Positions 7,797 through 19,868 of a stretch of 20,000 nt of DNA are shown here, piece after piece. Below the pieces are notes generated by a model. It made no database searches. It saw only the letters and a list, made by a program, of their open reading frames with translations, and was not told where the DNA came from. The translations under genes and the position numbers were made by a program. How positions within the stretch are numbered: position 1 is the first letter of the stretch; each line of letters starts with the position of its first letter. The DNA comes from an uncultured virus (IMG/VR IMGVR_UViG_3300021400_000864) (taxonomy: Duplodnaviria > Heunggongvirae > Uroviricota > Caudoviricetes): IMG/VR virus record IMGVR_UViG_3300021400_000864, positions 55,125 through 75,124 of that record. One strand, given 5' to 3'.

Positions 7797-8261
7797 TCAT
7801 GCTACAGTCGCTTTAACTGTAGCGACTTCTTTAGTCTGACGATTGACTGAATGAGCTTGTAAGTACTGTAGAATAGCAGTGACGAAAAACTTTACATCAT
7901 TAGCACTATAGCACTTTATTCTGTATTCTGAAGTATCATTGAAAGATGTATCTATGTTACCGATTAAAGCACTCATGCTGGGAATATCGTATAACCCCGT
8001 TTTAACTCTTATTCCATAGCTGGCTTCTTCTTTACGCTTATTTCCTTTTCTTTCGTGACGTGCCCACACTGTTATGAAATCAGAAACGTTACTTTCAACT
8101 ATGCAAACGTCTTCAGTGTCAATTTTGCTTTTTTCTGTAAGTGCGTACTTCTTATTTTTACCCTCAGGTAACTTAAATAGCTTTGACTGAATAAGCTCAT
8201 TCTGAAGTGCTAACATAGTCTGCTGATTGTCGTTTCTTTCAAAAAGATTGATACGTGTCAT
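7797..8261 (-). CDS. hypothetical protein
   Basis: 154 aa, RBS GAAAGAGGT; ends ATVKATVA. Confidence 0.75.
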   Translation of the reverse strand: MTRINLFERNDNQQTMLALQNELIQSKLFKLPEGKNKKYALTEKSKIDTEDVCIVESNVSDFITVWARHERKGNKRKEEASYGIRVKTGLYDIPSMSALIGNIDTSFNDTSEYRIKCYSANDVKFFVTAILQYLQAHSVNRQTKEVATVKATVA

Positions 8262-8336
8262 AAAATACCTCTTTCTCTGTTTTAACGTCTTTGTCAGCTG
8301 ACAGTCATGTGTTGTGTGTTGTATATCTATAAAGCA

Positions 8337-8585
8337 TTACTCTGCTTTATATTCCATTGTTAACCCGTTACGAAGTGTTATTTTTGCTCCATCACTAAAA
8401 CTTTGTACGTGACAATACCTATCTAAATTATCATGAAATTCTATATCAATATAGTTACTATCCCAGTGACATGTGATAATGTCTTTTATATGTACATCAT
8501 AGTTACGTGATAAATTGTAAGTTTGTATTCTAGCATTGATTAAATCAAAATCAGAAAAGAAAACTCGTATAAAATCGTTACTCAT
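8337..8585 (-). CDS. hypothetical protein (82 aa)
   Basis: Start moved to ATG at 8583-8585, which follows RBS GAAAGAGGT. Confidence 0.7.
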   Translation of the reverse strand: MSNDFIRVFFSDFDLINARIQTYNLSRNYDVHIKDIITCHWDSNYIDIEFHDNLDRYCHVQSFSDGAKITLRNGLTMEYKAE

Positions 8586-8663
8586 GTTTTTACCTCTTTC
8601 TTTCTTTAATTGTGTGTCATTGTCACACAATTAAGTGCTTTTGTTTGTGTCGTTTTTCTTTTA

Positions 8664-8692
8664 ATTATACACTTGACTTTTGTCATAAACAA
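8664..8692 (-). promoter_or_regulatory. sigmaA-like promoter for the three-gene island
   Basis: Minus strand TTGTTT-N17-TATAAT. Confidence 0.55.
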
Positions 8693-8771
8693 CTAAAAAT
8701 TGTGATGTCGTTAAAATAAGTCAAGAAAAATAGTTGTTTTCTACAAAATAGATAAAAAATATCAAGCATTA

Positions 8772-8786
8772 AATTGTCTGACAATT
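8772..8786. promoter_or_regulatory. CodY-box-like palindrome
   Basis: AATTGTCTGACAATT against consensus AATTTTCWGAAAATT, two symmetric mismatches; the palindrome extends over 8770-8788. Confidence 0.45.
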
Positions 8787-8790
8787 TAGC

Positions 8791-8839
8791 ATACTATATA
8801 TTGTAGTTGAGCAGCGATCAATCATACAATATATAGTGT
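8791..8839. promoter_or_regulatory. tandem NrdR-box-like sites
   Basis: ataCTATATATTGtag (8791-8806) and ataCAATATATAGtgt (8824-8839) match acaCwAtATaTwGtgt; starts are 33 bp apart. Confidence 0.5.
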
Positions 8840-8934
8840 GATTGCGTTTCTACTATATTAATATAGTTTTGACACATTTACACTTTTACGCTTTACTTCG
8901 CTAAAGCGTGAGCGAAGCGAACAGCGAAGCTATC

Positions 8935-9560
8935 CTACCCGCCTAGGACCCGTACCCTAGGCCATCTACCTAATGGAGCTGAGGACTGCCCCATAATGGA
9001 CCTAGGGCAAATGGCCCTTTTCCAGGTCGACAAATGGAGGATTCCCGGACGAATAGATTCCGGGCCTATAATGGAGGGAGGCAAGGGGGCGAAATGAAAT
9101 CCCGGCAGCCTATAATGGAGAAATCAGTGCAATCGCAAAGCCTGTCTGCGTTTGCGCTTATTTCCGGAGAAAGGCCCGGAGGCATGTGGAAATTATCGAA
9201 ATAATGTTATTTTGACCCCTATAGGAGACACGAAATATCGTCAAGTTCCCTCATTCGTTATACTCTACTAAAAAGTGCTCCAAATGCACCAACCGTGCGT
9301 GTTTGGAGCACTTGTGCAATTTGCACAAAGAGCCTTCCAAAGGCTCTAAAAATGAGGGTTGGAGGACATAAAAATGGGGAAAAATACTAGCAAAATACAA
9401 AAATGCCCAACTATACCACTTTTTGGACTAAAAATGGGAACACGCATGGTTGGTGCGTTCCAGACGTGCGCTTGTGCAAGGTGCACTATGAAAAGTTTGG
9501 AATTTCCGGGAAAATTTTCTGGGAAGGCCAGCTTCCAGGGAAAAGGATGGTAATCAGGAC
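8935..9560. repeat. GC-richer non-coding region with short repeats and inverted repeats (candidate ori or genome terminus)
   Basis: Repeated WAATGG, GCCTATAATGGAG twice (9064, 9108), CCTAGG three times, a 12-bp hairpin at 9273-9313, long-range inverted repeat 9285-9303/9439-9457, A-tracts. Confidence 0.6.
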
Positions 9561-9759
9561 TTGCTTACGAGACAGCGAGGAAAACTAGAAGGATGCTCGA
9601 TTAGGCTAGATGGCTACTGAAATGGCTCTCCTCTACTTATACTATTACTAATGGTATTATTTAATATGGATATTAGGATTTATGGTTATACTGCTTCTCT
9701 TTATTCCGCCCTGTTTTTGCTCTTGATGTGATAGTAGTGTAGAATAGATGGTTACTGTA

Positions 9760-9786
9760 TTTGGCGACTCTTTTGGGGTCGCCAAA
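9760..9786. terminator. hairpin, possible intrinsic terminator
   Basis: TTTGGCGACTC-ttttg-GGGTCGCCAAA, followed on the plus strand by T-rich sequence. Confidence 0.4.
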
Positions 9787-9891
9787 ATTTTCATTTTGGA
9801 GTTGTCGTTGATTTGTAGCGTAAAAGTATTTTTCATCTTCCTATTTGTAGTTAATACCATTCTTTGTTAGGGGTTACTATAAATTAAGGTA

Positions 9892-10203
9892 TCATTTTAG
9901 GCACTCTGCCCACTCTTTTCGCCTCTCTTCAAGCTCTATGAGGTAATCCTTATAGTCGAACTCGTTGAGGATGTATATGCTACTCATGTAGCATGGCTCA
10001 CCATACTGTTTATAGAACTCTATACCTAGCTCTATACTGGCACTGGATATTAGTTCTTCTACTGAGAAGCCTGGTGCATAATCCATTTCATACTTAATAT
10101 GGTCTTGCTCATGTTTTGCGCCGTATAATCCCCACCCATGTGCTATAACTCTTACATCTTCATCCTCAGGTCTTGTGTATCTTCCAACATTTATATTCAA
10201 CAT
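9892..10203 (-). CDS. hypothetical acidic protein (103 aa)
   Basis: Start moved to ATG at 10201-10203, which follows GAAAGGAG. Confidence 0.75.
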   Translation of the reverse strand: MLNINVGRYTRPEDEDVRVIAHGWGLYGAKHEQDHIKYEMDYAPGFSVEELISSASIELGIEFYKQYGEPCYMSSIYILNEFDYKDYLIELEERRKEWAECLK

Positions 10204-10217
10204 AATGGTCTCCTTTC

Positions 10218-10418
10218 TCAAAATTCGGGGTCTGTGCTCATCACTACCATTGCCCACTCTTCATCTATAACATCAACGACTACGGAAGGGTCGTTCTTAT
10301 AAAGGTCTGCATAATAGCGGTAGCAGTCTCTTGAATCAGCATAATCCAGATGGTTTACTTCTGTTCTGATTACAGGATTAAGTTTCTTGTTCGTGCTATA
10401 AATTTCTACGGTATACAT
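10218..10418 (-). CDS. hypothetical protein (66 aa)
   Basis: RBS GAGAGGAG, downstream of repeat copy 1. Confidence 0.75.
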   Translation of the reverse strand: MYTVEIYSTNKKLNPVIRTEVNHLDYADSRDCYRYYADLYKNDPSVVVDVIDEEWAMVVMSTDPEF

Positions 10419-10441
10419 AATGGCTCCTCTCTTTCAATAAA

Positions 10442-10496
10442 TAGTTGTTTTCTACTAATTATAGGGTATCACATGGGTGATACCCTAGCAACTGGA
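10442..10496 (-). promoter_or_regulatory. 55-bp cassette repeat, copy 1
   Basis: TCCAG-TTGCTA-N17-TACCCT-ATAATTAGTAGAAAACAACTA; 11-bp internal hairpin at 10462-10487. Confidence 0.85.
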
Positions 10497-10673
10497 TTAT
10501 TCAAAACTTCTGACTAAGAGGTAAACTCCTCTCTTTGCTGTTATCTCTTCGCCATTGATTGGCTTTGTCTCTTCTGCTTCTCTCATTTCCTGGTCATCAA
10601 AGCTGTTGAACATCAACCATGCCATATACTGCATTACAGGTCTCATATTCTCTCTGGCTTCTTCTCTTGTCAT
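10497..10673 (-). CDS. hypothetical protein (58 aa, not in ORF track)
   Basis: MTREEARENMRPVMQYMAWLMFNSFDD...VRSFE; RBS GAGAGGA; TAA abuts repeat copy 1. Confidence 0.75.
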   Translation of the reverse strand: MTREEARENMRPVMQYMAWLMFNSFDDQEMREAEETKPINGEEITAKRGVYLLVRSFE

Positions 10674-10699
10674 TTTGGTATCCTCTCTTTCATAAATGA

Positions 10700-10754
10700 T
10701 AGTTGTTTTCTACTAATTATAGGGTAGCACACTGGTGCTACCCTTTCAACTGGA
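10700..10754 (-). promoter_or_regulatory. 55-bp cassette repeat, copy 2
   Basis: TCCAG-TTGAAA-N17-TACCCT-ATAATTAGTAGAAAACAACTA; 10-bp hairpin at 10721-10744. Confidence 0.85.
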
Positions 10755-10756
10755 CT

Positions 10757-10996
10757 TTAGTCTCTTGTATAAACATTCCACTCATTTAAGGAATACATTG
10801 TGAAGGGCTGTGAAACTTCGTTCTCAGAAGTGGGATAAAATACATTTGCTACAAGCTCACCGGACTCTTCTTCTATCATCAGACTTTCGGCATCTTCTAT
10901 GAGAATCTCATAGCCTTCATATGCTCTTATGATTTCCCCGGTAGTCTCATCTTCAAATCTTGCCCCATCAATTCTTGCGGTTAATAAAATCTTCAT
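10757..10996 (-). CDS. hypothetical acidic protein (79 aa)
   Basis: Start moved to ATG at 10994-10996, which follows GAAAGGAG. Confidence 0.75.
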   Translation of the reverse strand: MKILLTARIDGARFEDETTGEIIRAYEGYEILIEDAESLMIEEESGELVANVFYPTSENEVSQPFTMYSLNEWNVYTRD

Positions 10997-11023
10997 CTTT
11001 GGTTCTCCTTTCAATCTATACAT

Positions 11024-11078
11024 TAGTTGTTTACTACTGATTATATGGTACTACAAGCTGATGCAGTATGCAACAGGA
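11024..11078 (-). promoter_or_regulatory. 55-bp cassette repeat, copy 3
   Basis: TCCTG-TTGCAT-N17-TACCAT-ATAATCAGTAGTAAACAACTA. Confidence 0.85.
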
Positions 11079-11155
11079 ATATAATCTATATCCTCACGCT
11101 CACCAGGCTTTGTTCCTGACGTTTTTATTTAGCTTTTGATAATTTATTCAAGAAC

Positions 11156-11197
11156 AAAAATAAAGCGTCAGGAATCGACTCCTAACGCTTTATTTTT
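11156..11197 (-). terminator. intrinsic terminator
   Basis: Minus RNA GCGUUAGGA-gucgau-UCCUGACGC followed by UUUAUUUUU. Confidence 0.75.
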
Positions 11198-11347
11198 TCA
11201 AGCCTCATAATCTACACACGCTTCTCTGTCTGGAGTATCTAAAATCTCATCCCTTAGGACGCACTTGTAGTAATCAAAGGTTGCATCCGTATAATCGTCA
11301 TACTCAAAGTCCTCTTTAAACCATACACAATCTTCGCATTTACACAT
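11198..11347 (-). CDS. small Cys-rich acidic protein (49 aa)
   Basis: MCKCEDCVWF...YKC...ACVDYEA; ATG follows GAAAGGAG. Confidence 0.7.
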   Translation of the reverse strand: MCKCEDCVWFKEDFEYDDYTDATFDYYKCVLRDEILDTPDREACVDYEA

Positions 11348-11360
11348 AATGGGTCTCCTT

Positions 11361-11528
11361 TCAATCTTCATAAAATGCTCTTCTGGCCTGCTCTTTTTCA
11401 CCCTCTGCTATAAGGGCATCCCTTCTTTTCTTATCTGTCTTTGTCATTCTGCCTTCACATGGCATTGTTCTCATATTCTCACCGCATTCCTTAAAGTATA
11501 TGCAGTTTCTACATGGGTATTCACACAT
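11361..11528 (-). CDS. small Cys-rich protein (55 aa, not in ORF track)
   Basis: MCEYPCRNCIYFKECGENMRTMPCEGR...; RBS GGAGG; TGA runs into the next RBS (TGAAAGGAG). Confidence 0.7.
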   Translation of the reverse strand: MCEYPCRNCIYFKECGENMRTMPCEGRMTKTDKKRRDALIAEGEKEQARRAFYED

Positions 11529-11531
11529 ATC

Positions 11532-11798
11532 TTATTCCTCCATCAAGTATCCACGGACTTCATCATAGTAGAACTTCACTATATTGGTAAACCACTTCTC
11601 GTTGCAATCTATTCTAGGTTTACCTGTATAGATGGTCATGTGATTAGTGTCCTCATTCTCTACTCGGAATATCTCTCTTCCGTACTTCTGTACTTCTCTC
11701 TGTAACCAGTCCATAGCTACATTGTAGCTGACTTCTGATAATACCATGGTGTATCCTGTCTCTTCATCTATACAGGTAGTTACAAATTTTCTCATCAC
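11532..11798 (-). CDS. hypothetical protein
   Basis: RBS GGAGGT; start is GTG at 11798 or ATG at 11795, overlapping the upstream stop. Confidence 0.7.
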   Translation of the reverse strand: MMRKFVTTCIDEETGYTMVLSEVSYNVAMDWLQREVQKYGREIFRVENEDTNHMTIYTGKPRIDCNEKWFTNIVKFYYDEVRGYLMEE

Positions 11799-11983
11799 TC
11801 TATACCTCCACCTTCTTTAAACTCTGAACATAAGGGCTGTTCATCTCTTTCCCAATCTTCTTCACATAACCAAACTGAATCAAATACTTCTTCGTCCACC
11901 TGCTTCTCTTTACTACAAAAGTATATGCGGTCAGACTCATTCCATTCACAATTTACGCAGTTATAACATCCCATCTTACTCAT
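11795..11983 (-). CDS. small Cys-rich acidic protein (62 aa), paralog of 13226..13486
   Basis: GCYNCVNC...YFC...DEE...W...W...QPLCSEFKE; ATG follows GAAAGGAG. Confidence 0.75.
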   Translation of the reverse strand: MSKMGCYNCVNCEWNESDRIYFCSKEKQVDEEVFDSVWLCEEDWERDEQPLCSEFKEGGGIE

Positions 11984-11997
11984 CACTATTTCTCCTT

Positions 11998-12117
11998 TCA
12001 CTTAATCATCAGAACGGTAAAACCGTTGCTGAGTGCTTCGTAGACCTGCATCATTGTCAGTTCCCTAACATCTCTGGTGTTGTCGTTAAATACATAATAG
12101 GTGTGCTTTGTAAACAT
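11998..12117 (-). CDS. hypothetical protein (39 aa, not in ORF track)
   Basis: MFTKHTYYVFNDNTRDVRELTMMQVYEALSNGFTVLMIK; RBS GAAAGGAG right after repeat copy 4. Confidence 0.7.
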   Translation of the reverse strand: MFTKHTYYVFNDNTRDVRELTMMQVYEALSNGFTVLMIK

Positions 12118-12142
12118 TGGTTACTCCTTTCGATGTGTGTTA

Positions 12143-12197
12143 TAGTTGTTTTCTACTAAGAATATGGTACTGCATCTCTAAAAGAAAAGCAACAGGA
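12143..12197 (-). promoter_or_regulatory. 55-bp cassette repeat, copy 4
   Basis: TCCTG-TTGCTT-N17-TACCAT-ATTCTTAGTAGAAAACAACTA. Confidence 0.85.
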
Positions 12198-12216
12198 ACT
12201 TTGACATTCCTGTTGC
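12180..12216 (-). terminator. intrinsic terminator overlapping the -35 of repeat copy 4
   Basis: Minus GCAACAGGAA-tgtcaaag-TTCCTGTTGC followed by TTTTCTTTT. Confidence 0.7.
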
Positions 12217-12226
12217 CTGTGAATCA

Positions 12227-12571
12227 TTATCCCCAATCACCTCTGGGTACTTCTATCAGCTCTACATAATCACCGGGCTCAAGCTCTAGGTCATATACAT
12301 TCTCCGCGGTGTGCTTTCTCAGCACGATGTTATCGTCCTCATTCTGAAAAGCGTAGATGCAGGAGTAAGTGTAAGAGGATGCTCCTGTGATATGAAGGTT
12401 AAACCCGTCTACTGACTCGCACTCTCTCTCAATCTTTCTCCAGGACTCTGCTTTCTCACGGCTGACTGATTTATACACATCCCAAATGGTAGTACCCTTA
12501 TAATGATTGTGAAGGAAATCGTGAATCAGCTCGTCTGCTTTCTTTGTTCCAAGGTTTACTTTTGTACTCAT
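12227..12571 (-). CDS. hypothetical protein (114 aa)
   Basis: Single-gene cassette between repeats 5 and 4; RBS GAAAGGAG. Confidence 0.8.
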   Translation of the reverse strand: MSTKVNLGTKKADELIHDFLHNHYKGTTIWDVYKSVSREKAESWRKIERECESVDGFNLHITGASSYTYSCIYAFQNEDDNIVLRKHTAENVYDLELEPGDYVELIEVPRGDWG

Positions 12572-12596
12572 AATATACTCCTTTCAATATAAACAT

Positions 12597-12651
12597 TAGT
12601 TGTTCTGTACTAATTATAGGGTAGCACACAGGCACTACCCTATCAACTGGA
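12597..12651 (-). promoter_or_regulatory. 55-bp cassette repeat, copy 5
   Basis: TCCAG-TTGATA-N17-TACCCT-ATAATTAGTACAGAACAACTA; 9-bp hairpin at 12616-12643. Confidence 0.85.
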
Positions 12652-12654
12652 ATA

Positions 12655-12918
12655 TTACTCATCACGACTAACAACCTTATCTATATATAGACCTCCATCT
12701 TTATGCGCTCTGCTCATAATCTTGGTGAACAGATACATCAGGTCTGCAAACGTATCATCGTCCAGATAACACTCAAGGTCATCGTCTGTGGTATTCTCAT
12801 CAATATCCCCATCTGCTACCCCGCACATAAGCCAGGGCTCTATCAATTCTTCATTGTTGACGGAGCGTACTAACATCTCCATCGCTCTTACTGCATTGGC
12901 TCTTTCCTTCACATTCAT
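12655..12918 (-). CDS. hypothetical acidic protein (87 aa)
   Basis: RBS GAAAGGAG; D/E-rich core DGDIDENTTDDDLECYLDDD. Confidence 0.8.
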   Translation of the reverse strand: MNVKERANAVRAMEMLVRSVNNEELIEPWLMCGVADGDIDENTTDDDLECYLDDDTFADLMYLFTKIMSRAHKDGGLYIDKVVSRDE

Positions 12919-13001
12919 ATCGTTCTCCTTTCAATCTGTGTACTGGCATTTTCAGCATCTACACTGGCGATATACGCTCGGCATAGAGTCTTACTCTGTG
13001 C

Positions 13002-13056
13002 TAGTTGTTTCTTACTAATTATATGGTAGCACAGAGTAAGTCGTCCTGCAACAGGA
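13002..13056 (-). promoter_or_regulatory. 55-bp cassette repeat, copy 6
   Basis: TCCTG-TTGCAG-N17-TACCAT-ATAATTAGTAAGAAACAACTA; 14-bp inverted repeat 12990-13003/13027-13040. Confidence 0.85.
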
Positions 13057-13221
13057 TTATTCATCTTCCATCTGCTCAAAATTTCTATAGCCGGTTCTTG
13101 CAAACAGAACATCCATCAATGTCTCTTCGGAATATCCATTGATGTCAGTCACCAGCTGTAATTCTGCTTCTGTGGCTATACCTCTTGCAATCAGTTCTTC
13201 CCATATCTCATTCTTATCCAT
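13057..13221 (-). CDS. hypothetical acidic protein (54 aa)
   Basis: Start moved to ATG at 13219-13221, which follows GAAAGGAG; TAA abuts repeat copy 6. Confidence 0.75.
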   Translation of the reverse strand: MDKNEIWEELIARGIATEAELQLVTDINGYSEETLMDVLFARTGYRNFEQMEDE

Positions 13222-13225
13222 AGCA

Positions 13226-13486
13226 TTATCTCCTTTCACTGAAACGCTCTTCATGGGCATATCTATCCCAATACTCATCTTCTTCTGTGGGAGCTTCTTC
13301 ATATCCCGGGCATAAAGGTTCTTCATTGTGCTCCCATTCTTCTCCATTTTCCCAAGCTCGTCTCACCTTTTCTTCATCAGCTACAACATTGTCCCAAACA
13401 GTCGAGACACACTCATAATCATCGGGATCCCAATATCTCCCGGGATAACATTTACAATACTTACAATTTGAACATCCGCACTTCAT
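13226..13486 (-). CDS. Cys-rich acidic protein (86 aa), paralog of 11795..11983
   Basis: GCSNCKYC...YEC...DEE...W...W...EPLCPGYEE; ATG follows GAAAGGAG. Confidence 0.75.
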   Translation of the reverse strand: MKCGCSNCKYCKCYPGRYWDPDDYECVSTVWDNVVADEEKVRRAWENGEEWEHNEEPLCPGYEEAPTEEDEYWDRYAHEERFSERR

Positions 13487-13500
13487 AATCTTCTCTCCTT

Positions 13501-13755
13501 TCAATTAAATACATGGTCATGTGCTTCTGCATATTTGGCACATTCGTGCATGAACCAATATTCTGTGGCATCTCTAATCTCCCCGTCTTCATTCTCATAT
13601 ACAGCGGCTACTGAAATATTCTCAGGCAGTCTCTTTGTGTGATGTTTCCACCACTTTCTCAACTCTTTCTCGGAAAGCTCTCTGTTAGCTCTCCTCTCTG
13701 ACTTTGCGGTATAACCATACATCTCATCAAAAAATACTAAGGTAGGATTCTTCAT
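13501..13755 (-). CDS. hypothetical protein (84 aa)
   Basis: RBS GAAAGGAG after repeat copy 7. Confidence 0.8.
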   Translation of the reverse strand: MKNPTLVFFDEMYGYTAKSERRANRELSEKELRKWWKHHTKRLPENISVAAVYENEDGEIRDATEYWFMHECAKYAEAHDHVFN

Positions 13756-13781
13756 AACTACTCTCCTTTCGATATAAACAT

Positions 13782-13836
13782 TAGTTGTTTCTTACTAAGT
13801 ATATGGTACTATAGATTTTCTATCTCTGCAACAGGA
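13782..13836 (-). promoter_or_regulatory. 55-bp cassette repeat, copy 7
   Basis: TCCTG-TTGCAG-N17-TACCAT-ATACTTAGTAAGAAACAACTA. Confidence 0.85.
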
Positions 13837-13902
13837 ATATTTCATGCTATCCGGCTTCGATTCCTCGCTTCTTTTATCTGCTGACATATAAATTATCAAT
13901 CT

Positions 13903-13937
13903 AAAATAAATAAAGCGCCAGAAAGACTCCTGGCGCT
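13903..13937 (-). terminator. intrinsic terminator, related in sequence to 11156-11197
   Basis: Minus AGCGCCAGGA-gtct-TTCTGGCGCT followed by TTATTTATTTT. Confidence 0.75.
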
Positions 13938-13957
13938 CACAATCTAGTACCTATAAA

Positions 13958-14149
13958 TCAGTCGTGTGTTGCGTGAAAATTCTCTATCGCCCACTTATTA
14001 CCTGTGGCATAGACTTGTCTCTTTGTTCTCTCATAAGGAGTCTCTCTTCTCTGACCTCTACTATTGTCTGTAATAATCATTTCACTTATCGGGCTATCAT
14101 CTACTCTTACTCTACCTCTTCCTGGAACTATTTCGTATCTCTCGCTCAT
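13958..14149 (-). CDS. hypothetical protein (63 aa)
   Basis: Start moved to ATG at 14147-14149, which follows GAAAGGAG; C-terminal TPYERTKRQVYATGNKWAIENFHATH. Confidence 0.75.
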   Translation of the reverse strand: MSERYEIVPGRGRVRVDDSPISEMIITDNSRGQRRETPYERTKRQVYATGNKWAIENFHATHD

Positions 14150-14255
14150 CTTTAATCTCCTTTCTCTCATAGTCACCACATCTCGTATCTCCCACTAAAT
14201 CTCTCTTGGCAAGACATTTCTTATAGTACCTACAGGTCTTAGCTTTACAGCTCAT
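14112..14255 (-). CDS. small Cys4 basic protein (47 aa, not in ORF track)
   Basis: MSCKAKTCRYYKKCLAKRDLVGDTRCGDYER...; RBS GAAAGGAG; overlaps the next gene by 38 nt. Confidence 0.6.
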   Translation of the reverse strand: MSCKAKTCRYYKKCLAKRDLVGDTRCGDYERKEIKDEREIRNSSRKR

Positions 14256-14282
14256 AGGCTCTCCTTTCTAAAAAGAGCTGGC

Positions 14283-14633
14283 TTACGCCAGCTCTCCATT
14301 CTCTTTGTAGGCTTCTTCAGATTCAAGCGCCATGAACTGAACTCCGTTGTAGTAGAACTGCAACTCGTAAGGATAATCTTCATCGTTCCCTCTAGGAACT
14401 ACTGCTATGGGCAGCTCCATAATCTTCGCTACATATCTCAGCGCCTCATTGCCAATGTGTATATGGTCTGTGCTGGAGTAGTTTTTAAGTACGATGTCAG
14501 GAACTATCTCACCCCTCTCATCATCAGACAGGTAGTCAATCTTCTCTGTAAGGGTCAACATATTGTGCTGAATATACATAGCCCCTACCTGTGTGTCTAA
14601 CCACTGCTTAATCTCGTTCTTGGTTGCTCTCAT
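14283..14633 (-). CDS. hypothetical protein (116 aa)
   Basis: RBS GAAAGGAG after repeat copy 8. Confidence 0.8.
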   Translation of the reverse strand: MRATKNEIKQWLDTQVGAMYIQHNMLTLTEKIDYLSDDERGEIVPDIVLKNYSSTDHIHIGNEALRYVAKIMELPIAVVPRGNDEDYPYELQFYYNGVQFMALESEEAYKENGELA

Positions 14634-14660
14634 AATTCATTCTCCTTTCAGAATATATGT

Positions 14661-14715
14661 TAGTTGTTTGCTACTGATTATATGGTAGCATATCTAAAAC
14701 TGTCCTTCAACAGGA
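14661..14715 (-). promoter_or_regulatory. 55-bp cassette repeat, copy 8
   Basis: TCCTG-TTGAAG-N17-TACCAT-ATAATCAGTAGCAAACAACTA. Confidence 0.85.
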
Positions 14716-14717
14716 AC

Positions 14718-14984
14718 TCACAGCAATTTTTGATTTTCCAAAAACTCTTTATGATAGAATATTTCCAGTATCTGAACTACTGATACGCCTAACATATTAG
14801 CTATATTGAACATTCTGGAAACAGACATCTTCCATGTGCCATCAAGATTGCAATACAGATTAGACTGGTCTAACTTTGCGTCCAGACAAAACTGATGAAT
14901 ATTCTCATATCCCGCATTTTTAACTAATGCCTCTAATTTCTCTTTTAACTCCTGCGCTTCTTCGGTTCTTATGCTGTTACTCAT
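14718..14984 (-). CDS. XRE/Cro-like helix-turn-helix protein
   Basis: NIHQFCLDAKLDQSNLYCNLDG...SVSRMFNIANMLGVSVVQIL fits the XRE-type HTH pattern. Confidence 0.7.
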   Translation of the reverse strand: MSNSIRTEEAQELKEKLEALVKNAGYENIHQFCLDAKLDQSNLYCNLDGTWKMSVSRMFNIANMLGVSVVQILEIFYHKEFLENQKLL

Positions 14985-15154
14985 CTATTATTCTCCTTTC
15001 TCCTTAATCTCTCTAATCTTGCTGGAACAACTATAGTGGCATTGCACTCATCACAGCATCTGGCATCTTCTGCTTCTATTACTGGCCAAGGGTCATTTCC
15101 CCAATCTGTACAAATCTTACCACAAATACAGCACTCATATCCTAATTCACTCAT
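14981..15154 (-). CDS. small Zn-finger protein (57 aa, not in ORF track)
   Basis: CCICGK...WGNDPWP...RCCDECN...VVPAR; RBS GAAAGGAG; ATGA overlap with the HTH gene. Confidence 0.8.
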   Translation of the reverse strand: MSELGYECCICGKICTDWGNDPWPVIEAEDARCCDECNATIVVPARLERLRRKENNR

Positions 15155-15167
15155 AATTATTCTCCTT

Positions 15168-15385
15168 TCAGTTTGCTAAAAATGGGTCATTCCACCATTG
15201 CTCGTTTTCAACTACTTCCTAATTCTAAGATTCTTATGTCCTTTCATAAGAAGAAGGTCATTCTCTGTTGGAGCGTACAACATACGCTCCAACGTCTTTT
15301 CTGCGAAAGCTCTTGAGCCCTTACATACTTTTATAAGGCAATCCTTAAAACTCTTTGTGTCTCCTACTATGATGTACTCAGTCAT
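15168..15385 (-). pseudogene. hypothetical gene with an apparent 1-nt frameshift near its 3' end
   Basis: Frame from ATG 15385 stops at TAG 15212-15214 (57 aa). The shifted frame continues EVVENEQWWNDPFLAN to a TGA at 15168-15170 that is coupled to the next RBS. Confidence 0.55.
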
Positions 15386-15663
15386 GCTAATTCCTCCTTT
15401 CTTACATAGTATGCTGAATACTTACCAAGCTCGTTGTACTGGCAGTTGTAAAATTCAAAATGGTTTACTCTACTATCAAACTTCAACTCCCATTCAAGAG
15501 GCTCTACATCAAACTTATCTCCCTTATTGATGTCGAGGTTGAACATATTGTTGTCCACATAAACTTTCACAGGCACAAGTCTAATTGTCTTGCCCTCACC
15601 ATACAGCCTTCTTGCTGTCATCTTAGAAACTCTTACCCATCCATTAACTGTTATCTGATTCAT
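15382..15663 (-). CDS. hypothetical protein (93 aa)
   Basis: RBS GAAAGGAG after repeat copy 9. Confidence 0.8.
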   Translation of the reverse strand: MNQITVNGWVRVSKMTARRLYGEGKTIRLVPVKVYVDNNMFNLDINKGDKFDVEPLEWELKFDSRVNHFEFYNCQYNELGKYSAYYVRKEELA

Positions 15664-15691
15664 CTTGGTACTCCTTTCATATCTTGTGTGC

Positions 15692-15746
15692 TAGTTGTTT
15701 TCTACTAACTACATGGTAGCACAAGCACACAAGATATGCAACAGGA
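15692..15746 (-). promoter_or_regulatory. 55-bp cassette repeat, copy 9
   Basis: TCCTG-TTGCAT-N17-TACCAT-GTAGTTAGTAGAAAACAACTA; 15-bp inverted repeat 15678-15692/15724-15738. Confidence 0.85.
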
Positions 15747-15748
15747 AC

Positions 15749-15811
15749 TTATCTAAAGTTAGCTCCACCAAGAGACATTAGTATCATTGCAATCACTACA
15801 ATCCACAGCAT
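15749..15811 (-). CDS. 20-aa hydrophobic peptide (not in ORF track)
   Basis: MLWIVVIAMILMSLGGANFR; RBS GAAAGGAG, TGATG coupling, stop 2 nt from repeat copy 9. Confidence 0.65.
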   Translation of the reverse strand: MLWIVVIAMILMSLGGANFR

Positions 15812-15996
15812 CACTTGGTCTCCTTTCTCAGCACATTCAGTCTCCATATAATAAGATTCTGTACATCTGTATAGGCTTCAAGTTTGCCTACAAGATAATC
15901 GTACTCCTTACTTCCCTTTGGAGTATGTACCATCTGCCCTATAATCTCTTCTACCTGACTTGATACTGCTGATAATGCCATCTCTAATTCCTTCAT
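15811..15996 (-). CDS. hypothetical protein (61 aa)
   Basis: RBS GAGGAG; starts 1 nt after the upstream stop. Confidence 0.7.
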   Translation of the reverse strand: MKELEMALSAVSSQVEEIIGQMVHTPKGSKEYDYLVGKLEAYTDVQNLIIWRLNVLRKETK

Positions 15997-15997
15997 C

Positions 15998-16354
15998 TTA
16001 TAATTCTCCTCTCATATCTTTATAGATTTTAAATAGTTCCACTGAAATCTTGGCTTTTGTGAGTTTATTGTCCTCTATAAGCTGCCTTATCTGCTCTATT
16101 CGCTCTGCGGTCTCCTCTACAAAATTATGCCAGCTCTCATTTGACTGTTCAAGATTATGGAAATCAGAATTAAACTTCTGTTGGGCGATATTCTCCTCTA
16201 CATTTATTTCCAATATTCTCTCTGCCACATAATCATGTACATCTTCACCCATATCCTGATAAATCTCTTCTAAAACATCATAATCACTAAGGGGCGTAAA
16301 TGTACGCCCCGATTTAGTTGTCATAGTATGGAAATCCCTAAAATCACTCATCAT
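15998..16354 (-). CDS. hypothetical acidic, coiled-coil protein
   Basis: 118 aa, RBS AAGGAG. Confidence 0.75.
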   Translation of the reverse strand: MMSDFRDFHTMTTKSGRTFTPLSDYDVLEEIYQDMGEDVHDYVAERILEINVEENIAQQKFNSDFHNLEQSNESWHNFVEETAERIEQIRQLIEDNKLTKAKISVELFKIYKDMRGEL

Positions 16355-16535
16355 ATACTCTCCTTACATTTTCTCTCACAGCTTTAGCGGCATAGAGCTG
16401 AGACTGCATATCAAGTCGTATTTCAGGAAGACAATCTTCTTCAAGGCAGTCCTCTATATGTCGGATATACTTGTCTAACTCCTTAGCTAATACTTCTGAA
16501 TTTGGCATTACATTATAGTATTCATCATGTGGCAT
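16344..16535 (-). CDS. hypothetical protein (63 aa)
   Basis: RBS GAAAGGAG after repeat copy 10. Confidence 0.75.
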   Translation of the reverse strand: MPHDEYYNVMPNSEVLAKELDKYIRHIEDCLEEDCLPEIRLDMQSQLYAAKAVRENVRRVYDE

Positions 16536-16560
16536 AACATATCTCCTTTCAAAATATGTT

Positions 16561-16615
16561 TAGTTGTTTCTTACTAATTCTATGGTAGCACATGACTGCT
16601 ACCATAGCAAGTGGA
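16561..16615 (-). promoter_or_regulatory. 55-bp cassette repeat, copy 10
   Basis: TCCAC-TTGCTA-N17-TACCAT-AGAATTAGTAAGAAACAACTA; 11-bp hairpin at 16580-16607. Confidence 0.85.
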
Positions 16616-16617
16616 AC

Positions 16618-16908
16618 TTAATCTGTTGTCTCCAGATAATATCTCAGCTCATCACCTTTAAGATGGTTGCAGGCATACTCATGTGCTTCATAGTAAAGGT
16701 CTGAATACAGCTCACTCAGCTCCTGATTGCCCATATCATACCAATACCAGCATGAATGATTGAGAACCATTACCAAATCTGTGAGATACTTGTACTCCTT
16801 CTTCCACTCTTTAAACGCTCTCTTATAGGTATCTTTGATTGCGCTGACGCCAAAGGCGTCAGCTATTCTGAAATCTGTCCAAAATGTTGTGGTAAACTGT
16901 TCTGCTAT
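16618..16908 (-). CDS. 96-aa protein with an apparent ATA start (not in ORF track)
   Basis: Open frame (M)AEQFTTTFWTDFRIADAFGVSAIKDTYKRAFKEWKK...YYLETTD fills the gap exactly; RBS GAGGAGG; TAATA overlap with the upstream stop. Confidence 0.7.
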   Translation of the reverse strand: MAEQFTTTFWTDFRIADAFGVSAIKDTYKRAFKEWKKEYKYLTDLVMVLNHSCWYWYDMGNQELSELYSDLYYEAHEYACNHLKGDELRYYLETTD

Positions 16909-17132
16909 TATACATATACCTCCTCTTCATCTTCTTCAGGCTCATCAAAAATGTGCTGACACTCAGAACACATACCAGTTTTCAGAAACTCCCTCTTGTC
17001 TGCATCAAGGGGAATATCTTGAATATATCCGTATCCTGCTAAATATCTCTGATACAGTTTGTTCACCTCTTCTGTAATCTCCAGAGATGACTTCTTACCA
17101 CACAGCATACAATTCTTTGTAATCTTTACCAT
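16908..17132 (-). CDS. small Zn-binding protein (74 aa)
   Basis: CMLC...REFLKTGMCSEC, acidic tail; RBS AAAGGAG. Confidence 0.8.
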   Translation of the reverse strand: MVKITKNCMLCGKKSSLEITEEVNKLYQRYLAGYGYIQDIPLDADKREFLKTGMCSECQHIFDEPEEDEEEVYV

Positions 17133-17148
17133 AGCCTTTACTCCTTTC

Positions 17149-17337
17149 TCAAATCAATTCTTCAATGTAATCCATTTCTAGCCCGTACTCTGCTGACATC
17201 ATATCCTCTACATCATCGTATGATGCCCCATCTTCAATCATTTCCCATATAGCTTGTCTTGCCTCAGCTCTAGCTCTCTTAGCCTCATCTACTGTCATGT
17301 GGTCACGATTGATTAGTACCCTTTCAAAATCTGTCAT
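17149..17337 (-). CDS. hypothetical acidic protein (62 aa)
   Basis: First gene after repeat copy 11; RBS GAAAGGAG. Confidence 0.8.
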   Translation of the reverse strand: MTDFERVLINRDHMTVDEAKRARAEARQAIWEMIEDGASYDDVEDMMSAEYGLEMDYIEELI

Positions 17338-17358
17338 AATAAACTCCTTTCAATATGC

Positions 17359-17413
17359 TTGTTGTTTGCTACTAAGTACATGATATATCGGGCATAACTA
17401 CTTTGCAACTGGA
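17359..17413 (-). promoter_or_regulatory. 55-bp cassette repeat, copy 11
   Basis: TCCAG-TTGCAA-N17-TATCAT-GTACTTAGTAGCAAACAACAA. Confidence 0.85.
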
Positions 17414-17418
17414 ACAAT

Positions 17419-17454
17419 AAAAAAATCGACTAGGCAAATAGTCTAGTCGATTTT
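17419..17454 (-). terminator. intrinsic, possibly bidirectional, terminator closing the replication operon
   Basis: AAAATCGACTAG / CTAGTCGATTTT stem with a U7 tract on the minus strand. Confidence 0.8.
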
Positions 17455-17478
17455 CTTCATATTATAAGTAGAAACAAC

Positions 17479-17793
17479 TCAATCCTGTAATTCATCTACT
17501 CCATATCTAGCTTGTCTTAACTGTCTTTTCCAGAATGATGATTTCCTTTTCATATCCGGATTATTGCATCTATCCTCTGCCCATGACTGGTCTTTCACAA
17601 GTGTCTCCCTAACAAAAAATGTATGACCTAGCATACATTTATATAATTGTAGAGTCTCATCGGGCAACCTTAATGGCTTAAACTCTTGCTCACTTATAGG
17701 ATAGCCTAACTCATCACAAAATGGACACATATAAGGGTACACTACCTTTAATGGACGCTTTTTTAGTTTGGCAATAAAAACTTTATCTTTCAT
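17479..17793 (-). CDS. hypothetical Zn-ribbon-like protein (104 aa)
   Basis: CPFC...CMLGH motif; RBS GAGGTG. Confidence 0.7.
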   Translation of the reverse strand: MKDKVFIAKLKKRPLKVVYPYMCPFCDELGYPISEQEFKPLRLPDETLQLYKCMLGHTFFVRETLVKDQSWAEDRCNNPDMKRKSSFWKRQLRQARYGVDELQD

Positions 17794-17802
17794 ATATCAC
17801 CT

Positions 17803-17976
17803 CTATATTAATGGTTTGGTATTCTGCTCATTCTGCCATTTTCTATAACATACTGGACCCATACCAAGTTTTCTGCTCTCTTCGCTTCTCAATTTTCTAC
17901 CACATCTAAAACAGAGGGGATGTTGGTTTTTTAGGAACGATTGGCTTTTCTCTTCCATCTCCAAAGCTGACTTCAT
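17803..17976 (-). CDS. DUF6011-like small Zn-finger protein
   Basis: CFRCGRKLRSEESRKLGMGPVC motif; probable start ATG at 17974-17976 after AAAGGAG. Confidence 0.65.
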   Translation of the reverse strand: MKSALEMEEKSQSFLKNQHPLCFRCGRKLRSEESRKLGMGPVCYRKWQNEQNTKPLI

Positions 17977-18187
17977 ATTCAACTCCTTTCTTTTTAGCCC
18001 GGCATTTTCTCTGACGCTCTCTAATCCACTCATCAAAATAAGGCTTTACTTGCTCAGACGGTGCAACCTCTTCTCTAGTGTAGAACTTAAAGCCACACAC
18101 ATCACATTTTCTGTATCGGAGTGTGGCTTTTTGCTGATTGATTGTCTCTAATACAGATATTTCTCCATTACAACTAGGACATAACAT
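17906..18187 (-). CDS. NrdR N-terminal-like Zn-ribbon protein (no ATP-cone)
   Basis: MLCPSC...VLET...RYRKCDVCGFKFYTRE resembles NrdR MxCPxC...VxDSR...RRRxCxxCxxRFTTxE; RBS GAAAGGAG. Confidence 0.7.
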   Translation of the reverse strand: MLCPSCNGEISVLETINQQKATLRYRKCDVCGFKFYTREEVAPSEQVKPYFDEWIRERQRKCRAKKKGVEYEVSFGDGREKPIVPKKPTSPLF

Positions 18188-19127: not shown

Positions 19128-19868
19128 TTACACTAATTCCCTTCTAAGTATTTTACCGTATATGCCGTCAAATCTAGCTACCTTTCTTATTACAGACATA
19201 GCAACATTAAATTGTATAGAAAGCTCCTTTATTGACATTCCACTGTTCAATAAGGCATTTATCTCAAATACATCATCTATTTTTAATGCCGCCCTATTTA
19301 ATGCCTGTTTTTGTTTTGAACATTCGCTACGAACAGTGCCTAAATGAGCAATTCTATTAGATTCGGCTATTTTCTTTTTTGTTTCATCAGATAAAACTCT
19401 TCCTAAACAATTTTGTTTTCCTTTCATAGACATGCTCATTTTCTTACGGGTCTCTAATGACTTAGGCACTCCCTTCAACTTACTAGGTCTATTTTTTAAC
19501 CTCTCACTAGCCCGTCTATTTCTTGTGCCATAATTTACATTATATTCATAAGTACACCACTCAAGATTATCAACAGAATTATTTTCCTTATTCTCATCTT
19601 TATGATTAACACAAGGAAGATTATCAGTATTTGGTATAAATGCCTGTGCAACAAGCCGATGCACTTTTAATAATTTTTTATCATTATTTTTTGATACCGT
19701 GACAGAATAATATCCTCTATCAATTTTTTGAGATAATATTTTTGATTTTCTATGCACAACTCTGCCATCTGTATATTGTATCGTTCTATCAATGCTCCTC
19801 ACTCTACCTAGATTACTAACTTCATAATAATCATCATATCCTACAACTTTTCTCCATTGCTCTTTCAT
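19128..19868 (-). CDS. NUMOD4-HNH homing endonuclease with NUMOD3-like repeats
   Basis: WRKVVGYDDYYEVSNLGRVRS (NUMOD4); VHRLVAQAFIPN...VNHKDENKENNSVDNLEW (HNH); SLETRKKMS and SDETKKKIAES (NUMOD3-like). Confidence 0.92.
   Translation of the reverse strand: MKEQWRKVVGYDDYYEVSNLGRVRSIDRTIQYTDGRVVHRKSKILSQKIDRGYYSVTVSKNNDKKLLKVHRLVAQAFIPNTDNLPCVNHKDENKENNSVDNLEWCTYEYNVNYGTRNRRASERLKNRPSKLKGVPKSLETRKKMSMSMKGKQNCLGRVLSDETKKKIAESNRIAHLGTVRSECSKQKQALNRAALKIDDVFEINALLNSGMSIKELSIQFNVAMSVIRKVARFDGIYGKILRRELV

Follow-up and report, generated by a model that had tools for sequence, protein, structure and literature searches.

An array of small-gene cassettes headed by a repeated 55-nt element, probably a promoter-hairpin unit and recombination linker, in an uncultured phage

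The final 20 kb of a single 75,124-nt contig (37% G+C) from an uncultured virus of the Caudoviricetes (IMG/VR record IMGVR_UViG_3300021400_000864, positions 55,125 to 75,124) was analysed; this 20,000-nt stretch is called the window, and positions are counted from its first letter. The window contains an array of small genes that is punctuated by 11 copies of a fixed-length, 55-nt element. The element was found to have a conserved promoter-like anatomy, a covarying stem in many of its copies, mosaic seams between relatives at or near it, and a 3′ part that evolves in concert within each genome. Taken together, these findings make it likely that the element is a composite cassette of the promoter-early stem-loop (PeSL) type, in which a host sigma-A promoter is usually fused with the hairpin at the end of the preceding gene, and which also acts as a linker for recombination.

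Anatomy of the 55-nt element

All 11 copies lie on the minus strand, in a gap-free alignment of 55 nt. The weight matrix derived from this alignment scored 53-75 bits at their own sites, and nothing above 8 bits elsewhere on either strand of the 75,124-nt genome. A preliminary description of this DNA had listed 11 same-orientation copies of 55 bp at these positions, and the alignment and the genome-wide scan confirm it; the consensus given there, however, sums to 54 nt rather than 55, and the 3′ block reads AAACAACTA. Conservation reaches one T past the 5′ edge of the element, which thus begins with TTCC. In 7 of the 11 copies, the stop codon of the preceding gene lies 0-3 nt from the TCC edge (10497, 10757, 12655, 13057, 14718, 15749, and 16618), and the four non-flush copies sit behind terminator-like hairpins (17422-17454, 13913-13938, 11156-11197, and 12187-12218). 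A GAAAGGAG-type ribosome site and one to five small open reading frames follow each copy. Both the junctions and the downstream signals had been described correctly. The distance from the end of the element to the start codon has a median of 24 nt, the sole exception being an 83-nt leader behind the copy at 13002.

Three kinds of stem were distinguished. In type A, an internal stem has a folding free energy (dG) of -14 or lower; in type L, a stem of 12-13 bp joins the spacer with the leader; and in type B, the -35 region is the 3′ arm of a terminator hairpin. The phage's own copies comprise four of type A, two of type L, one of type B, and four without a strong stem, three of which stand behind separate terminators, the fourth being the flush copy at 14661. 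The array, the copies, and the associated hairpins are as follows.

9892..17413, minus strand: whole array; 11 cassettes, each led by a putative promoter, with about 30 small genes
17422..17454, minus strand: terminator-like hairpin with T run; closes the upstream genes, directly ahead of the first copy
17359..17413, minus strand: copy 1; -35 TTGCAA, -10 TATCAT; no TG and no internal stem; behind terminator 17422-17454
16561..16615, minus strand: copy 2, type A; stem CTATGGTAGCA/TGCTACCATAG links the spacer and the -10 box; core dG -18.0; flush with stop 16618
15692..15746, minus strand: copy 3, type L; 13-bp inverted repeat (spacer versus leader) around the -10 and start region; duplex dG -24.2; flush with stop 15749
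14661..14715, minus strand: copy 4; flush with stop 14718, core dG -5.5; the one flush copy that lacks a strong stem
13913..13938, minus strand: terminator-like hairpin with T run; ahead of copy 5
13782..13836, minus strand: copy 5; no TG and no strong stem; behind the separate terminator 13913-13938
13002..13056, minus strand: copy 6, type L; 12-bp inverted repeat CTTACTCTGTGC/GCACAGAGTAAG around the core, dG -24.3; flush with stop 13057; followed by the 83-nt conserved leader
12597..12651, minus strand: copy 7, type A; core dG -17.2; flush with stop 12655; missing, together with the gene 12655-12918, in the X3 and X4 variants (see below)
12143..12197, minus strand: copy 8, type B; TTCCTGTTGC at its 5′ end doubles as the 3′ arm of terminator hairpin 12187-12218, with the run TTTTCTTTT next, within the spacer
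11156..11197, minus strand: terminator-like inverted repeat with T runs on both sides
11024..11078, minus strand: copy 9; no TG, weak stem; behind the inverted repeat 11156-11197
10700..10754, minus strand: copy 10, type A; stem AGGGTAGCAC/GTGCTACCCT, core dG -17.7; flush with stop 10757
10442..10496, minus strand: copy 11, type A; stem AGGGTATCAC/GTGATACCCT, core dG -16.8; flush with stop 10497

The pattern TTG-N17-TAnnnT was present in all 11 copies, and the TG of an extended -10 box in seven, which are precisely the seven flush copies. For comparison, 80 loci of terminase relatives were taken from IMG/VR. In the closest relatives (72-87% terminase identity), a recognisably homologous element occurs in 5-14 copies, with place and orientation unchanged, and the profile gave 37 matches, all on the gene strand, within 7 of the 80 loci. 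Alignment of 61 copies from seven phages revealed three conserved blocks: TTCC.gTTG, in which CC precedes the -35 TTG; Tg.TA.c.T, an extended -10 box of the TGnTAnnnT form; and 15-20 nt after the -10 box, including the start region. A TG precedes the -10 box in 44 of the 61 copies, whose -10 hexamers include TATCCT, TACCTT, TACCAT, TACCCT, TATAGT, and TATAAT. At the same place in more distant relatives, the canonical TGnTATAAT was found in 4/4 (L010) and 7/7 (L014) of the listed copies, with an A/T-rich tract upstream in L014. A six-frame search of the complete genome gave no Sigma70_r2 match, and thus no phage-encoded sigma factor was detectable; RNA polymerase was annotated nowhere in the PHROG results. 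The simplest reading is that the element would be a host sigma-A promoter of the extended -10 type, and the earlier assignment of TTG-N17-TAnnnT to sigma A is borne out, at the level of the DNA letters, by the conservation across 61 copies and by the canonical boxes of the distant relatives. A promoter for a phage RNA polymerase, or an N4-type hairpin promoter, was considered and dropped, as the PHROG results contained no polymerase-like protein.

Two observations fit this reading less well. The phage's own copies are weak when compared with an E. coli-type consensus (3/6 positions at -35 and 4/6 at -10), and a simple promoter scanner listed only 1 of the 11. Moreover, the conserved TTCC is not explained by it; distant relatives keep CC-n-GTTG, which suggests that TTCC is part of the -35 context. 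In the proposed scheme, the host RNA polymerase holoenzyme would bind TTGnnn (-35) and, across a 17-nt spacer, TAYCNT (-10), helped by the TG in 7 of the 11 copies. Transcription would start about 7 nt downstream of the -10 box, within the conserved TTAGTAG, and would continue through a short A/C-rich leader and the GAAAGGAG site into the one to five small genes. The copies are thus presumed to be active promoters, and early ones.

The spacer and the -10 region are reverse complements of each other in many copies, e.g., AGGGTAGCAC-nnnn-GTGCTACCCT (type A). Folding was examined in 54 copies from six phages, in which a copy was called flush if it adjoins the end of an open frame of at least 25 codons. 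An internal or enclosing stem was found in 20 of 28 flush copies, compared with 3 of 26 non-flush copies (Fisher p=8.5e-6; homologous positions recur in several phages, and the copies are therefore not independent), and the three stem-bearing non-flush copies also have an upstream terminator. In an alignment of 17 type A copies, the 12-pair stem was 96.5% paired, changes on both sides were seen in 8 of the 12 pairs, none of 500 shuffles reached this value, and controls in which the arms were slid collapsed. Strong folding was a criterion for inclusion in this set, which makes the pairing percentage partly circular; the double changes are unaffected by this. In type B copies, the arm made by the -35 region is followed by a T run, and the 5′ arm carries compensating changes (GCAACAGGAA, GCACTAGGAA, GCTACAGGAA, and GCTACTGGAA).

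The type A stem ends about 7 nt ahead of the expected start site, and can therefore form only on RNA that reads in from the upstream cassette. It would accordingly act on the 3′ end of the upstream transcript, by termination, attenuation, or stabilisation. In a flush element, the partner of the spacer would be the -10 region in type A and the leader in type L, and the read-in RNA would thereby fold into a hairpin whose end lies shortly ahead of the next start, with one of the effects just named. In a type B copy, the 3′ arm of the terminator would itself be the -35 region. Such double duty of one sequence would account for the C-rich -10 box, as a compromise between promoter and stem. The role of the hairpin at the RNA level is thus proposed from its position and pairing, and several observations weigh against termination as such: a proper U run is missing behind the type A stems (AUAAUUAG in the phage itself), terminator scans of the window and of L086 do not flag these stems, and the flush copy at 14661 lacks a stem. 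In addition, the two type L inverted repeats of the phage's own genome are without a clear function. Even so, the flush gene junctions, which the preliminary description had taken as a sign of recombination, appear better explained by a promoter-built hairpin that ends the upstream transcript than by site-specific recombination.

Cassette exchange and competing explanations

Gene-family maps revealed that the flanks of the array are conserved between relatives, and that the content and the order of the cassettes differ. With P denoting the element and numbers denoting gene families, one relative reads P[6] P[39 40 41 42] P[43 8 9] (L085) and another P[39 40 62 42] P[6] P[43 8 9] (L086). The moved cassette, P-[6]-P, aligns between the two from 1 nt ahead of one element to the last nucleotide of the next. 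In this swap, the spacer and -10 box go with the upstream gene in two of three pairs, and the leader goes with the downstream gene, which places a switch of ancestry within positions 35-55 of the element. In the comparison of L086 with L005 (92-98% identical), an alignment block ends 231 nt upstream of an L086 element, and homology restarts at the first base of that element; two other changes start 17-25 nt past the element end. The 3′ part was also found to be more similar among copies of the same genome (identity 0.78-0.80) than among positional orthologues (0.60-0.66). This similarity is concerted evolution.

Variant contigs that are 90-97% identical were available from three other ruminant-gut runs (X2, X3, and X4, the last with a contig of 77 kb), and their breakpoints were collected among the matches listed, which leave aside 19 loose ends and 33 pieces. 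Seven of the 30 distinct breakpoints fall within the element or 5 nt of it (expected 10%, binomial p=0.028), including the one at 16561, shared by the three runs, and those at 12178 and 10735, both of which are internal to an element. A further 6 of the 30 lie in the leader or ribosome site just behind the element. The preliminary description had asked whether breakpoints between relatives fall at the repeat; this holds for these breakpoints in the element and leader, and fails for the other 17, of which 11 lie at gene boundaries that lack the element and 6 lie inside genes.

These 17 breakpoints weigh against a special role of the element in exchange, as do several other results. In favour of such a role, gene neighbours were kept less often at element junctions (23 of 57) than at other junctions (99 of 134; p=1.6e-5), in genome-pair comparisons that are not independent; against it, the values were 2/19 and 8/24, respectively, when distinct neighbour pairs were counted, and the difference was not significant (p=0.14). 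No joint equals one repeat-to-repeat distance, and neither the deletions between repeats nor the excised circles expected in the preliminary description were seen in the assembled contigs, among the matches listed. A 347-nt deletion that removes the copy at 12597 together with a gene ends in the 11-nt homology ATTGAAAGGAG of two ribosome sites, and not in the 55-mer.

As a mechanism, the copies, which are near-identical direct repeats of 55-80 nt, would act as linkers for homologous recombination and gene conversion. The exchange would probably be carried out by the phage's own RecA and junction resolvases, and whole cassettes could thereby move, vanish, or be replaced. PHROG annotation of the genome includes a RecA/UvsX-like protein, two Holliday-junction resolvases, and a Cas4-like nuclease. 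We conclude that the copies are frequent, though not exclusive, seams of homologous exchange and gene conversion, and not sites of a dedicated recombinase. The earlier proposal of a recombination joint thus survives in part: cassettes change place at the element and its copies evolve in concert, but a site-specific system is not supported.

That proposal had gone further, to an integron-like array, in which an attC-like element would be cut by a site-specific recombinase. The cassette layout of the array, the seven flush gene junctions, the palindromes in some copies, and the change of place of cassettes between relatives are all compatible with such a system. The remaining evidence speaks against it. 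No recombinase had been seen in the window, and six-frame searches of the complete genome likewise gave 0 matches to Phage_integrase (PF00589) and 0 to Resolvase (PF00239), where 14/14 and 12/14 control genomes, respectively, gave matches; an integrase was also absent among the 117 predicted proteins (PHROGs) and the 70 open reading frames scanned with Pfam. Every cassette is headed by its own promoter-like copy, rather than being promoterless and dependent on one common promoter. The palindrome covers the -10 box rather than the ends of the element, and occurs in only 4 of the 11 own copies. The GTTG...CAAC boundaries, which had been read as a sign of recombination, are present in 11/11 own copies and in 9/10 copies of one relative, but are missing in all 27 copies of three others (L086, L087, and L005), and were rejected as paired ends because relatives do not keep them. 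Finally, the breakpoints are scattered over the element, the leader, and other gene boundaries, with 17 of 30 away from the element and leader. An integron-like system is therefore extremely unlikely, and already largely refuted.

Another explanation is that the copies are only promoters with built-in hairpins, which are alike through selection and common descent, and that seams are found near them since only exchanges that preserve the units survive. This would account for the breakpoints at element-free boundaries and inside genes, the non-significant test on distinct adjacencies, the lack of a joint spanning precisely one repeat distance, and the deletion that ends in ribosome-site homology. 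We nevertheless consider it unlikely, as the 3′ half and the -10 box are more alike within a genome than between positional orthologues, which selection by a shared polymerase does not explain, and as contig breakpoints inside the element and the ancestry switch in positions 35-55 indicate exchange within the element itself. The copies could also be middle-type promoters that require a phage factor, i.e., an activator or a sigma appropriator, reading TTCC or the genome-specific start region, instead of being served by the host holoenzyme alone. Conservation beyond the -35 and -10 boxes (TTCC and 21 nt after the -10 box), the occurrence of the genome-specific start region behind a different upstream sequence at 8731, and the weak -10 box TACCAT would agree with this. 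It appears improbable, given that no sigma domain was found in the genome, that the array resembles a first-expressed set of small orphan genes, that the same layout occurs in relatives with the canonical TGnTATAAT, and that CC-n-GTTG is retained in relatives whose promoters, by their consensus, need no help.

An additional role was considered for the TTCCU edge, which might act as an anti-Shine-Dalgarno sequence and mask the ribosome site of the next cassette on read-through RNA, such that translation would occur only from the transcript of the cassette's own promoter. The ribosome site is predicted to be more open on own transcripts (unpaired fraction 0.76) than on read-through RNA (0.51), a C-to-A change at the edge lifts this value to 0.59 (p=0.0014), and pairing between edge and site reaches at least 0.4 in 8 of 43 copies. 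However, longer RNA pairs more anyway, the mean pairing probability is 0.125 and stays below 0.4 in 35 of the 43 copies, and distant relatives keep ACC/GCC rather than UCCU; this role is accordingly judged very improbable. A more speculative picture combines several of these features into a self-contained, self-homogenising 'expression socket'. In this picture, the -10 box would be recoded to TAYCNT, so that the same 10-12 letters serve as the -10 box on DNA and as a hairpin arm on RNA; UUCCU would mask the ribosome site; the start region, shared with the site at 8731, would tag all messages; and RecA would keep the copies alike by gene conversion. Each cassette would then be transcribed, terminated, and translated in isolation from the adjacent ones, the flanks acting in trans-independent insulation. 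We regard this combination as improbable, and prefer the composite promoter-hairpin unit that doubles as a recombination linker.

The array and the phage that carries it

The array is flanked by the clamp-loader end of the replication genes on one side, and by a 1.3-kb non-coding stretch ahead of the packaging genes on the other. A PHROG family was absent for 23 of 24 predicted array proteins, and none of the array open reading frames scanned with Pfam reached the cut-off. Many of the array proteins (window 11198-15154, minus strand) are short and acidic and contain numerous paired cysteines (CxxC...CxxC), among them those encoded at 11198-11347, 11361-11528, 11795-11986, 13226-13504, 14981-15154, and 16908-17132. 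The frame at 16618-16902 (minus strand) is a homologue of a 95-98-aa family of the relatives; it is open for 94 codons without ATG, GTG, or TTG near its 5′ end, and an out-of-frame ATG overlaps the ribosome site. Two further features of the region are as follows.

12919..13001, minus strand: long 5′ leader behind copy 6; 83 nt, conserved in five phages, with the blocks GAGTAAG, GTATA, and TGCTGAA, and a hairpin with some covariation
8731..8748, minus strand: start region alone, counted as its 13th copy; TTTTGTAGAAAACAACTA, 18.6/27.2 bits; behind a different AT-rich upstream sequence and ahead of the packaging genes

The leader has no Rfam match, and in the X3 and X4 variants is joined straight to the next gene (12227-12571); a search of positions 8000-18000 against Rfam, with E up to 0.1, gave zero matches, and no tRNA was found either. 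A lone start region behind another AT-rich upstream sequence was also seen in relatives (L005 5007, L086 12410, L087 15395, and L085 12111/12222), and these, together with the one at 8731, may represent a second promoter class with a common start site. Between positions 8600 and 9890, the window holds about 1.3 kb without convincing genes, in which short degenerate CCATTATAGG-like repeats occupy approximately 8960-9140. Relatives bear short repeat families of their own at this place, and the stretch may serve for packaging or as an origin. In a more distant terminase relative (L026:800-8400), a different repeated promoter-like sequence, TTGACC-N17-TAYACT, is accompanied by a GGGGC...GCCCC hairpin after, not before, the start site.

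The IMG/VR record is classed as having direct terminal repeats, and CheckV completeness is 100%. The contig ends repeat 107 nt (1-107 and 75018-75124), as seen through an identical rotated copy in another collection. This overlap in the rotated copy makes the map circular, and the clamp-loader genes at both ends become neighbours. Nearly all genes are carried by the minus strand. PHROG annotation identified the terminase small and large subunits, portal, scaffold, major head protein, and a 2219-aa tape-measure protein, as well as a split DNA polymerase, clamp, clamp loader, helicase, primase, and SSB. We take the phage to be siphovirus-like and virulent-looking. Its nearest portal relatives among GenBank phages (24-39% identity) belong to phages of Clostridioides, Clostridium, Faecalibacterium, and Ruminococcus, and the host is probably a member of the Firmicutes.

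Homing-endonuclease genes and a probable intein were also noted. The RecA gene (L001:5827-7893, minus strand) has Hint and LAGLIDADG matches in Pfam, probably an intein; a GIY-YIG homing-endonuclease gene divides the DNA polymerase into two genes (L001:14837-18124, minus strand); and more HNH/NUMOD endonuclease genes are found at window 19131-19868 and at L001:11324-12616. Three genes at L001:11324-14837 (minus strand) resemble the glucosyltransferase that modifies hydroxymethylcytosine, an indication that this phage may carry modified DNA.

In public data, the array was found in gut or rumen-type metagenomes from cattle, sheep, and goat. A megablast search with the window gave zero matches among GenBank phages. 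An exact-pattern scan of IMG/VR with the phage's own core motif returned a single match, on a giant-virus contig, which was taken as chance. The same scan of metagenome contigs recovered the same genome (100% identical, rotated), one 100% identical fragment, a 1.7-kb relative at 70-86% identity, and three loci without matching context (L090, L093, and L101); it recovered no near-identical variant bearing indels. The public runs listed with the array include no RNA run, and two metatranscriptomes of the likely source sample contain next to none of the sampled words.

Comparison with known systems

The host-takeover module of the Bacillus phage SPO1 contains many sigma-A early promoters and terminators ahead of small genes, and is located in the terminal redundancy of a large myovirus. 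The present array resembles it, in sequence anatomy, as a cluster of small, presumably early genes in what is probably a Firmicutes phage, with repeated host-type promoters interleaved with terminators. The SPO1 module lies in a terminal redundancy, whereas the present phage is known as a circularly closing assembly. To our knowledge, the SPO1 promoters have not been described as sharing a -10 box with a preceding hairpin, or as seams of exchange.

In integrons, attC sites, which are imperfect inverted repeats with conserved paired outer boxes, are recognised by the IntI tyrosine recombinase, and promoterless cassettes are expressed from a common promoter. The array shares with them a one-direction series of small unrelated cassettes, split by a repeated element, whose order varies between relatives. 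It differs in that no integrase accompanies it, each cassette has a putative promoter of its own, and the element is of fixed length, lacks conserved paired ends, and is exchanged at several positions. According to the modular theory of Botstein and Campbell for lambdoid phages, as summarised in PMC2839356, short conserved intergenic 'linker' sequences guide the homologous exchange of modules and keep regulation correct. The element is likewise a short conserved intergenic sequence that would direct homologous exchange; unlike the linkers as outlined in that summary, it is a 55-bp promoter-hairpin unit that occurs 11 times in one genome, and is not shared among phages at module borders.

The closest likeness was found with the PeSLs of the T4-type myoviruses phi1/RB49, T4/PST, and KVP40/nt-1 (Arbiol et al. 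2010, PMC2839356; Comeau et al. 2014, PMC4122927). A PeSL consists of a sigma-70-like early promoter and a stem-loop that lies between the boxes or overlaps one of them; an upstream stop codon is found at its 5′ end and a Shine-Dalgarno sequence and start codon at its 3′ end, in plastic regions of orphan genes (PMC2839356). Exchange at PeSLs uses the general recombination system of the phage, the arrangement was compared with integrons by Arbiol et al., and promoter, terminator, and mini-circle activities were demonstrated experimentally (PMC2839356). The present element has the same repeated composite of a sigma-70-type promoter and a stem-loop, as judged from its sequence, and the same placement between a stop codon at its 5′ end and a Shine-Dalgarno sequence and start codon at its 3′ end. 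Its copies cluster among small orphan genes in a plastic region, with gain, loss, and replacement beside some of them and also elsewhere, in a genome with general recombination genes and no dedicated recombinase.

Several differences from the PeSLs were also apparent. The PeSLs belong to T4-like myoviruses of Gram-negative hosts, whereas the present phage is siphovirus-like, with a genome of 75 kb, from the ruminant gut, and with a probable Firmicutes host. Here, 11 copies form one tight array, compared with approximately 50 scattered copies, and the element has a fixed 55-nt frame. The phage's own copies have TTCC and a coding end upstream of the -35 box, instead of an AT-rich tract, which was seen only in the distant L014. 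The putative promoter is of the extended -10 type, the C-rich -10 box itself is an arm of the stem, the GGGG/CCCC stem is absent, and the start region is both conserved and genome-specific. Moreover, the activities of the PeSLs are known by experiment, and those of the present element are predicted from its sequence. Given the 75-kb genome, the 2219-aa tape measure, and portal relatives in Firmicutes phages, which are not those of a T4-type myovirus, the element would be the same kind of device as a PeSL, an analogue rather than a homologue.

A search of the literature for such cassettes in other phage groups turned up only papers on T4-type or jumbo phages, or papers citing these, and the design is not put forward here as new to Firmicutes phages. 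The 11 copies indicate where the early transcription units of this uncultured phage group probably lie, together with about 30 candidate host-takeover genes, and the covariation across relatives documents one sequence under two constraints, as a promoter -10 box and as an RNA stem arm. The PeSL idea, developed for T4-like myoviruses with Gram-negative hosts, is thereby extended to a siphovirus-like lineage that is unrelated to them and common in samples from the ruminant gut. This suggests that repeated promoter-hairpin units, which express orphan genes and help to shuffle them, are a general solution for the 'early gene' regions of phages.

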